From Candidatus Moraniibacteriota bacterium (lineage in GTDB: Bacteria; Patescibacteriota; Minisyncoccia; Moranbacterales; UBA1568): a DNA stretch of 64,000 nt. A program made the translations under genes and the position numbers. Positions within the stretch are counted from its first letter, which is position 1; the number at the start of each line of letters is the position of its first letter. The DNA is taken from assembly GCA_013336285.1 (NCBI GenBank), contig JAAXTX010000004.1:624-64623 (forward strand), given 5' to 3'. A model generated the notes under the pieces. It ran no database searches. It was given only the letters and a program-made list of their open reading frames with translations, and was not told the DNA's origin. Shown here piece after piece: positions 22,547-22,849 of this stretch.

Positions 22547-22849
22547 ATGGCACGGTATTTTCACGGGACAAGCAGCGCTAACTTGCAAGCAATAATGACT
22601 CACGGGCTCATCGGAGGTTTAAACCTGACAGAAGCGAGGCGCAGGAATACGGAAATCGTTTTTTTAACGACAAATTATCAGAGCGCCGTCGGTTACGCCG
22701 GGAGAAGCAAGGCGCAACGCGGCGGTAAAGCCGTGGTATTGGTCGTTTCATCTTCCGAGGCAAGACCGTGGAAGAATAAAAAAGGTTGTACTATATTTAC
22801 GGCGCCAAACGTAATAGCACAGGAAATTTGTAAGGTAATTGAACTATAA
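22547..22849 (+). CDS. Small ADP-ribosyltransferase-fold protein (H-G-T motif; resembles the Tpt1/KptA C-terminal NAD-binding lobe)
   Basis: RYFHGTSSANLQAIMTHGL at the N-terminus (the H-Y-E ART clade has [FY]HG[ST]). Later IVFLTT, AVGYAGRS, KAVVLVV and IFTAPNVIAQEI parallel the Tpt1 C-lobe blocks. Only 100 aa. Confidence 0.4.
   Translation: MARYFHGTSSANLQAIMTHGLIGGLNLTEARRRNTEIVFLTTNYQSAVGYAGRSKAQRGGKAVVLVVSSSEARPWKNKKGCTIFTAPNVIAQEICKVIEL

Follow-up and report, generated by a model that had tools for sequence, protein, structure and literature searches.

A 100-residue protein with a predicted ADP-ribosyltransferase fold and a shared leader hairpin in a Moraniibacteriota genome

Introduction

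Two members of the ADP-ribosyltransferase (ART) superfamily provide the closest described systems for the protein reported here. In the RNA 2'-phosphotransferase Tpt1/KptA, NAD+ is bound by the C-terminal lobe alone, an independently folded module, and affinity for NAD+ is set mainly by the ADP moiety (PMC8464070). In Tpt1 of P. horikoshii (PhoTpt1), His95 and Thr97 bind the adenosine ribose, the backbone of Gly96 contacts the nicotinamide amide, the adenine is read by the main chain of Gly109 and Lys111, the ribose of nicotinamide mononucleotide (NMN) is bound by His119, which together with Thr130 packs on the nicotinamide, and the alpha-phosphate is held by Arg115, Arg133 and His134 (PMC10622864). 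No anionic enzymic group lies near the nicotinamide riboside of Tpt1, and it has been proposed that catalysis is substrate-assisted, by way of the attacking phosphate (PMC10622864). The second system, Arr (~16 kDa), has been described as an unusually small single-domain ART (PMC8120803). Here we describe a protein of 100 residues and 10.9 kDa, which we call mini-ART, encoded in a 64,000-nucleotide stretch of a Candidatus Moraniibacteriota genome (assembly GCA_013336285.1, contig JAAXTX010000004.1, positions 624 to 64,623; hereafter the window), together with a leader hairpin that its gene shares with genes for radical S-adenosylmethionine (radical-SAM) enzymes.

Results

A conserved 100-codon gene

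The open reading frame (ORF) of mini-ART lies at 22547..22849 on the + strand, where 100 codons follow an ATG start and where an upstream AAGGAGG Shine-Dalgarno (SD) sequence ends 5 nt from that ATG. A preliminary description of this locus, made from the letters of the DNA alone, had given the same ORF, the same length and the peptide blocks RYFHGTSSANLQAIMTHGL, IVFLTT, AVGYAGRS, KAVVLVV and IFTAPNVIAQEI, all of which were recovered exactly as it had them. Orthologs were found in other, independent metagenomes (n=5, each of 100 residues, at 58-79% identity), and the nucleotide differences between orthologs are concentrated at codon position 3 (29, 17 and 66 differences at positions 1, 2 and 3 between the window and locus L004). 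Given the strong ribosome-binding site, the five orthologs of equal length and the excess of third-position differences, mini-ART is a real, conserved gene under purifying selection.

Members of this clade, which belongs to the candidate phyla radiation (CPR), are strongly basic (pI 9.4-10.1). A search of species-representative genomes with the close-clade alignment found a related locus in two genomes only. In the protein collection searched, the exact 100-residue sequence is recorded only from a Logan assembly, and the adjoining radical-SAM protein is recorded from the NCBI annotation of a Candidatus Moranbacteria metagenome-assembled genome (MAG), which makes the host a CPR (Patescibacteria) bacterium; the mini-ART gene may be unannotated in the public MAG record.

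The predicted fold

Structural models of mini-ART were generated using AlphaFold (AF2). A five-sequence input gave one good model (predicted local distance difference test, pLDDT, 83.6), and with a 76-sequence alignment all five models exceeded a pLDDT of 91, the best reaching a pLDDT of 92.6 and a predicted template modelling (TM) score, pTM, of 0.85. The predicted structure has strands at residues 38-41, 62-68, 83-86 and 94-99 and a helix at residues 44-58. The preliminary description had likened its peptide blocks to conserved strands; IVFLTT, KAVVLVV and IFTAPNVIAQEI are indeed modelled as strands, but AVGYAGRS falls within the helix.

When the model was compared with the PDB using Foldseek, the best 16 matches were all Tpt1/KptA (best E 1.3e-5), with TM-scores of 0.66-0.68 when normalised to the query and ~0.38 when normalised to the target, a root-mean-square deviation of ~3.3 A and ~22% identity; the low target score beside the high query score indicates that a single lobe of Tpt1 is matched. 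All 50 of the 50 matches listed are ART-fold proteins, the others among them including the DUF952 protein CC0527, DarT1, Arr, the cholera, pertussis and Plt toxins, PARPs, and the Rhs proteins TreX and TreTu. Within BFVD, a set of viral structure predictions, phage proteins of 94-98 residues match over their full length, with query and target TM-scores of 0.71-0.74 and 0.75-0.77 respectively. Both the AF2 model and the PDB matches point to the split beta-sheet core of the ARTs, and the predicted fold of mini-ART is nearest to the NAD+ lobe of Tpt1/KptA. The likeness to the Tpt1/KptA C-lobe noted in the preliminary description is therefore upheld, since the C-terminal NAD+ lobes are the closest solved structures, as is its account of the protein as a stand-alone lobe that has no N-terminal winged-helix lobe; the remote-homology searches and structure prediction that it had proposed as a check return an ART fold, and not the unrelated fold that it had named as grounds for giving up the idea.

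Relatives among bacteria and phages

Single-sequence searches with mini-ART gave no significant match in Pfam, PADLOC or the PDB. Among curated profiles, NCBIfam NF002013 (RNA 2'-phosphotransferase) was matched at E 6.9e-5, with residues 4-89 of mini-ART aligned to positions 98-166 of the 183 in the profile, which is the C-terminal lobe only. The score of 22.5 bits compares with a curated cut-off of 231, which places mini-ART outside the Tpt1 family, and no match to Pfam PTS_2-RNA was reported for the query. The phage family PHROG 2110, a profile of 105 positions, was matched at E 1.2e-6 (residues 3-93 on positions 12-104), and relatives of mini-ART match it at E values down to 1e-27. Together with the Foldseek result (E ~1e-5), the NF002013 and PHROG 2110 matches show that the H-G-T resemblance from which the preliminary description had started is more than chance.

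An exhaustive hidden Markov model (HMM) search with the ortholog alignment retrieved 55 clusters at E<=1e-3, and a profile search retrieved 83. Most of the 55 clusters are stand-alone proteins of 93-145 residues, while some matches are C-terminal domains in larger proteins, scoring just above the 25-bit Pfam Arr-ms threshold; overall, the stand-alone ART-domain family spans lengths of 93-150 residues. Its signature, [FY]-H-G-T ... E-x-(G)-R-x-x-N ... V-F-x-T ... A-x-x-Y-A ... G-G, is present in mini-ART, which the family HMM scores at 4e-35, the query itself being part of that alignment. The Pfam Arr-ms family (PF12120) is matched by 7 of 27 aligned relatives at E<=0.1 (best E 1.9e-8) and is not matched by the mini-ART query at E<=1, so that the link between query and Arr is only transitive. 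At the level of the whole family, a 76-sequence profile aligned by hhalign with Arr-2, whose sequence was confirmed against the PDB, at a probability of 92.8% and E 4e-7, and Arr-2 and Arr-ms ranked top in an hmmsearch of PDB sequences with the same family profile. Mini-ART belongs to a large family of stand-alone ART domains that lies between the Tpt1 NAD+ lobe and Arr.

Homologs of mini-ART occur in ~610 phage genome records, mostly of T-even-like Straboviridae, where the gene is flanked by those for the gp41 helicase and dmd and lies in an early region that also holds imm and sp. The phage proteins are ~96-106 residues long (for example L010 2965-3282 and L011 3001-3291, both from T-even-like phages). 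They are annotated as 'hypothetical protein' and, once, as 'ADP-ribosyl transferase', and we regard the phage homolog as a candidate host-takeover or anti-defence enzyme. AdfA, the anti-DarT factor, was considered as an identity for these phage relatives and set aside, being a DarG-like orphan antitoxin-type enzyme and not an ART; NARP3 was also considered and is unrelated. In a survey of viral NAD+ systems, the only phages credited with Arr-family ARTs are actinophages and the Sinorhizobium phage PBC5 (PMC9503650).

Conserved residues of the NAD+ site

Conservation was computed over 76 family members that average 26% identity. All 76 share H6, G7 and A47, and Y5, T8, R31, F39, T41, Y50, A51, G59 and G60 are conserved in at least 90%, T8 in 95%. 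Position 39 is Phe in 95% and Tyr in 5% of members, and position 50 is Tyr in 95% and Phe in 5%. N34 and R53 are each ~70% conserved, and most members carry an acidic residue 2-3 positions before R31. In mini-ART the key residues are accordingly H6-G7-T8, N12, G20, the E29/R31/N34 loop, F39, A47, Y50, R53 and G59-G60.

The first ART motif, H-G-[ST] on strand 1, is present as H6-G7-T8, which aligns to H95-G96-T97 of Tpt1; with the His and Gly invariant and the Thr nearly so in an ART fold, the earlier reading of H-G-T as an NAD+-binding motif stands. The second motif is represented by F39 and a second aromatic residue, Y50, 11 residues apart, a spacing that we take to equal those of Tyr54/Tyr65 in diphtheria toxin (DT) and Tyr896/Tyr907 in PARP1. 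At the third motif, where a catalytic Glu, Asp or Gln is expected at the start of strand 5, positions 80-84 of mini-ART read G-C-T-I-F. In the HMM alignment, PhoTpt1 H95/G96/T97, G109/K111, H119, T130 and R133/H134 correspond to H6/G7/T8, G20/I22, F39, Y50 and Q57/R58 respectively, and N12 aligns to Asn105 of the Runella slithyformis enzyme RslTpt1, which contacts the adenine (PMC8464070). As judged from the aligned sequences, the residues with which Tpt1 and PARP/DT contact NAD+ are invariant or nearly so in the mini-ART family.

Relative to Tpt1, the family carries an insertion of 9 residues, N-L-T-E-x-R-x-x-N, at the site that in Tpt1 holds the last of the four catalytic tetrad residues, an Arg, and the E-x-G-R-x-x-N motif is also found in Arr. 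The preliminary description had proposed a search for a catalytic Glu or Arg; this found no conserved acid at the third motif, but it did bring out E29 and R31, in the family-specific loop, as candidate catalytic residues. Cys81 is not conserved across the family; E71, which lies in the region of Arr Asp84, is not conserved either.

One hairpin before three gene families

Mini-ART is preceded by a leader at 22491..22542 (+), with an apical hairpin at 22503-22529, a folding z of -2.9 and a covariance model (CM) match of 39.7 bits. A second copy, at 23383..23440 (+), precedes a radical-SAM gene (apical hairpin at 23399-23425, folding z of -4.2, CM match of 44.1 bits), and the 64-kb window contains these two copies only. 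In the outer helix of the leader, an anti-SD sequence, CCUCCUUU or a variant of it, pairs with the SD, which in the ART copy is AAGGAGG. The outer helix encloses the apical hairpin, of consensus UUGUGCU-N-UCC-GGCC-GGA-AGCAUAA, whose single-base bulge is always on the 5' arm. Each leader folds better than shuffled controls (z -2.8 to -4.2). When seven distinct copies were aligned in register by hand, 97.4% of the cells paired, and compensatory changes were seen in 5 of the 11 pairs. RNAalifold, applied to a MAFFT alignment of 13 leaders, also returned this hairpin, and here both sides had changed in 6 of 11 pairs. One position of the stem alternates between G·U, A-U and G-C.

A CM built from seven copies was searched over 214 kb of sequence. 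Its matches precede three gene families only, namely mini-ART, radical-SAM/SPASM and a second radical-SAM family, and in every match the gene-sense strand outscores the antisense strand by 11-22 bits. Further copies lie at ~9940-10000 and ~10428-10492 in L004, at 1537-1563 and 2205-2231 in L008, at 800-826 in L009, at 3904-3930 in L013, at 5963-5989 in L018, at 3444-3470 in L028, at 3452-3478 (+) and 6062-6088 (-) in L025, and at 3452-3478 (+) and 1400-1426 (-) in L026. The second radical-SAM protein, of 430-435 residues and unrelated to the first, has the motif CKLNCKGC and is encoded at 4734-6041 (-) in L025 and 85-1377 (-) in L026; its Pfam Radical_SAM matches are weak and it has no match in NCBIfam, and by its sequence it would constitute an uncharacterised radical-SAM family. 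A leader is also found before P0060, a 55%-identical ART homolog that has no radical-SAM neighbour.

The leader has no match in Rfam. A DNA operator for the TrmB-family regulator encoded nearby was considered as an explanation of the palindrome and is disfavoured, because of the stem position that alternates between G·U, A-U and G-C, the restriction of the bulge to the 5' arm, the compensatory changes in the central stem and the strand asymmetry of the matches. We therefore favour an RNA element over a DNA operator, and the leader is a candidate for a new cis-regulatory RNA, which would act as a riboswitch or bind a protein.

A second conserved box, with a consensus of roughly YYCYTTRAAAAT, is found ~25-35 nt upstream of each leader hairpin and accompanies every copy; in the window it lies at ~22474-22486 (GCTCCTTCAAAAT) and ~23363-23376 (GAAGCTTAAAAAAT). 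At ~1508-1520 in L009 the box stands before a radical-SAM gene that has no hairpin. This box could be a -10-like promoter element, a TrmB/AsnC operator or part of a larger RNA structure.

Genomic setting

In the window and in the ortholog contigs the gene order is the same: a TrmB gene on the opposite strand, mini-ART, a variable small ORF and a radical-SAM/SPASM gene of 376-377 codons, the adjacency of mini-ART and radical-SAM being kept in five lineages. The TrmB-family winged-helix regulator of the window (259 residues, 21551..22330, -; Pfam TrmB E=6e-16; NCBIfam TrmBL1-like over its N-terminal domain only) is divergent from mini-ART, and a TrmB gene lies beside the module in L004, L008, L013, L025, L026 and L028. 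A consensus scan places a promoter-like site, TCCACA-17-TATACT, before the ART leader at 22415..22443 (+). Directly after mini-ART, and in the same putative transcription unit, an ORF of 66 codons with two hydrophobic segments is called at 22863..23063 (+), followed by an intrinsic-terminator-like hairpin at 23098..23125 (+). This ORF is also called in the 79%-identical relative; elsewhere its place is taken by unrelated small ORFs, a hydrophobic one of 60 codons in L008 and a soluble, Cys/His/Trp-rich one of 85 codons in L009, and there is none in L004.

The same type of scan gave a second promoter-like site, CTGACA-18-TATACT (10 of 12 matches), at 23309..23338 (+), before the radical-SAM leader. 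Downstream lie the gene for the radical SAM/SPASM protein itself (377 residues, motif CNLACAYC, 23445..24578, +; Pfam Radical_SAM and SPASM) and a terminator-like hairpin at 24600..24624 (+). This arrangement suggests two transcription units, to each of which a promoter-like site and a terminator-like hairpin can be assigned. The radical-SAM/SPASM protein has generic NCBIfam matches only and no relative in the PDB by sequence. Its family is far wider than the ART clade: CPR bacteria and DPANN archaea together yield at least 155 homolog clusters. In relatives whose radical-SAM proteins are 64-72% identical, the TrmB and radical-SAM genes are adjacent with no ART gene between them. Since the radical-SAM family is the wider one and each gene occurs without the other, mini-ART is an accessory gene inserted into an older module of regulator and radical-SAM enzyme, and not an obligate partner.

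The flanks are made up of housekeeping genes, with TilS, ribosomal protein S1, a metallo-beta-lactamase (MBL) hydrolase and GyrA upstream, and S15, two NYN proteins and polynucleotide phosphorylase (PNPase) downstream. The G+C content of the ART island is 0.43-0.46, as against ~0.51. The rpsO and pnp genes are usually adjacent; here the two NYN-domain (RNase-like) genes stand in tandem between rpsO (S15) and pnp (PNPase), at 25119-25625 and 25737-26516 (+). Loci L025, L026, L028, L018 (4201-5238) and L013 contain several paralogous regulators, of the TrmB or the double-helix-turn-helix AsnC type, and each of these is divergently paired with a variable cargo, which may be a radical-SAM gene, a mini-ART gene or an ORF of 130-170 residues. 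This pattern suggests that CPR loci have a repeated regulator-plus-cargo organisation.

Discussion

Taken together, we consider it somewhat more probable than otherwise that mini-ART is a functional single-domain ART-fold protein and an active NAD+-using enzyme, while our confidence in any particular acceptor is much lower. Such an enzyme would bind NAD+, expel nicotinamide and transfer ADP-ribose, or at least cleave NAD+. The ADP-ribose would pass to an oxygen nucleophile, a phosphate or a hydroxyl, on a non-protein acceptor such as a small molecule or a nucleic-acid end. With the canonical Glu/Asp missing, catalysis would either be substrate-assisted, as proposed for Tpt1, or make use of E29/R31 of loop 25-36. 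The acceptor site may be built from this loop, the W75-K-N-K78 loop and a strongly basic surface (pI ~10), and the basic pI of the CPR clade is compatible with an anionic acceptor.

Several points weigh against an active enzyme. No conserved acid is found at the canonical third ART motif, either in the CPR clade or in the 76-member family, so that the protein may be only weakly active, may do no more than hydrolyse NAD+, or may be inactive. E29 and R31 are assigned to the active site by alignment only, the Pfam PARP profile reaches the mini-ART query at a sub-threshold E of 0.12, and our literature search found no experimental study or biochemical data for any member of the family.

With respect to regulation, the leader hairpin would sequester the SD and gate the expression of mini-ART, and its opening would switch on mini-ART along with the radical-SAM enzymes; as the same hairpin precedes mini-ART, radical-SAM/SPASM and the second radical-SAM gene, a single signal would switch on all three. 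Of the clues at hand to what mini-ART does, this common leader is the best. A bolder proposal, which we offer as a speculation that is rather unlikely to hold in full, is that the leader is a new class of cis-regulatory RNA that marks a small regulon in Moranbacteria-type CPR genomes, in which two unrelated radical-SAM enzymes and mini-ART jointly make or modify one product through a SAM- and NAD+-dependent pathway. An ADP-ribosylated metabolite, nucleotide or RNA end would be an example of such a product. That pathway is called into question by radical-SAM orthologs at 45-72% identity that have no ART gene and by ART relatives at 48-55% identity that have no radical-SAM gene: the two are separable, and genes that are regulated together need not act in one pathway.

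The main rival to an active enzyme, which we judge unlikely but worth serious attention, is a non-catalytic binder of NAD+ or ADP-ribose acting as a sensor, sponge or regulator. It would account for the lack of a conserved canonical Glu/Asp and for a protein that consists of the binding lobe only, and it fits the finding that the affinity of Tpt1 for NAD+ derives mainly from the ADP moiety held by the C-lobe (PMC8464070). Three things sit poorly with it, however. Gly7, F39 and Y50 of the nicotinamide pocket are 95-100% conserved, although a protein that bound only ADP-ribose could do without them; Tpt1 is an active enzyme although it has no acidic catalytic residue (PMC10622864); and the E-x-R-x-x-N loop is conserved in the manner of an active-site loop and is common to the enzyme Arr.

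We think it improbable that mini-ART is an ADP-ribosylating toxin of a toxin-antitoxin (TA) or defence module, resembling DarT, for which the small downstream ORF or another neighbour would encode the antidote. Among the small ARTs of bacteria and phages many are conflict effectors, the phage relatives lie with dmd, imm and sp in the early region, one relative adjoins an integrase, DarT1 is among the weak sequence and fold matches, and the tight sequestration of the SD would suit a toxin gene. Nonetheless, a Pfam scan of ten neighbouring genes revealed no macrodomain, ARH or NADAR gene, PADLOC gave no match, the flanks are housekeeping genes, and the same leader controls two radical-SAM enzymes. 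The downstream ORF, moreover, changes between lineages from 66 codons (transmembrane) to 60 (transmembrane) to 85 (soluble) to none, and a TA pair made up of mini-ART and the 66-codon ORF was rejected on this ground.

Still less credible is a split Tpt1, in which mini-ART would be the NAD+ lobe working in trans with a separately encoded RNA lobe to remove RNA 2'-phosphates. The best fold and NCBIfam matches are indeed to the Tpt1 NAD+ lobe, the lobes of Tpt1 are structurally independent (PMC8464070) and the mini-ART protein is basic; but three of the four catalytic tetrad residues lie in the missing lobe, and the fourth, an Arg, is not positionally conserved, its segment being replaced by the 9-residue family insertion. 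Five neighbourhoods were inspected and no gene for a Tpt1 N-lobe is adjacent in any of these lineages, while the family stands alone in hundreds of phage genomes, and the model was rejected for these two reasons. The preliminary description had raised the possibility of a split enzyme, and that suggestion falls as well, given that no RNA-lobe gene lies nearby, that the winged-helix protein encoded next to mini-ART is a TrmB regulator of the ordinary kind and that the stand-alone family is large. Its further remark that a free-standing lobe would be unusual and perhaps minimal is half right: a single-domain ART has a precedent in Arr (~16 kDa, PMC8120803), but mini-ART is smaller still. Finally, a role as substrate or obligate partner of the radical-SAM/SPASM maturase, like the precursor or scaffold of a ribosomally synthesised and post-translationally modified peptide (RiPP), has hardly any claim on us: SPASM enzymes often modify peptides encoded alongside them and the adjacency is kept in five lineages, but most genomes with the radical-SAM family have no ART gene and there are ART relatives that have no radical-SAM gene, on which account a RiPP-substrate role was rejected, and, in addition, mini-ART is modelled as a compact, confidently folded, enzyme-like domain whose Cys81 is not conserved.

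If mini-ART is active, it would be about the smallest ADP-ribosyltransferase known, one-third smaller than Arr, and would define the minimal catalytic unit of the ART superfamily, showing how two loops can take the place of a second domain in forming an acceptor site. Were the regulon to prove real, it would contain, at 100 residues, the smallest active ART known, and one that works without the canonical catalytic acid. Given the size of the family, for which our search found no experimental study, a function assigned to mini-ART would annotate hundreds of phage genes. CPR bacteria have very small genomes in which little regulation is known; here the leader would tie an NAD+-using enzyme to two radical-SAM enzymes in a concrete, testable way.

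How, then, does mini-ART compare with known systems? The NAD+ lobe of Tpt1/KptA (PDB 8TG4, 8TFZ, 9LD4) is both its best structural and its best curated sequence match. The two have in common the H-G-T motif, an Asn four residues past the Thr, the adenine-reading Gly loop and two strands, V-x-L-[ST] and, at the C-terminus, [VI]-P-x-E-x-I; Tpt1, an ART of the H-H-h type, likewise has no acidic catalytic residue at the third motif. In contrast, mini-ART has 100 residues where Tpt1 has ~180, and the whole N-terminal winged-helix RNA lobe is missing, taking with it the first three members of the catalytic tetrad, which reads Arg-His-Arg-Arg. The fourth Arg aligns to T35 of mini-ART, beside the family-specific insertion (PMC10622864), and the His that binds the NMN ribose is replaced by Phe.

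Arr (PF12120; PDB 2HW2, 9IBA) is, like mini-ART, a single-domain ART, and it shares with the mini-ART family the [FY]-H-G-T motif, the E-x-G-R-x-x-N loop and an aromatic-containing strand. It is longer, however, at 143-150 residues, with a C-terminal extension and a rifampin cleft, and beyond residue ~88 it has no counterpart in mini-ART, which lacks its last ~50 residues. In terms of the His19/Tyr49/Asp84 triad of Arr-ms, the His is kept, Tyr49 becomes Phe, and no conserved counterpart of the catalytic Asp84 was apparent, the hhalign and hmmsearch alignments to Arr stopping short of it. The Foldseek match to Arr (E 0.03-0.07) is also weaker than that to Tpt1.

The proteins of PHROG 2110 and the T-even-like phages resemble mini-ART in size, in fold (BFVD TM-scores of 0.74 and 0.77) and in conserved residues, but differ in being only 25-35% identical, in carrying L-P-P and G-R-K-K-N-L-D signatures and in not being basic. 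The DUF952 protein CC0527 (PDB 2O0Q, 114 residues) is another stand-alone, minimal ART-like protein (Foldseek E 7.5e-3, TM-scores of 0.61 and 0.55), but it is 15% identical to mini-ART, shows no relationship at the profile level and has different signature residues. DarT (PDB 8BAQ), an ART-fold match, resembles mini-ART in its beta1-alpha1 segment, while its size of ~200 residues, its H-x-T and catalytic Glu motifs and its DarG macrodomain partner are all missing from mini-ART. What is new in mini-ART is thus that it is smaller than the characterised ARTs, that it has no canonical acid and that it is tied to a leader RNA; it is not unique in kind, for Arr and the phage proteins are similar.

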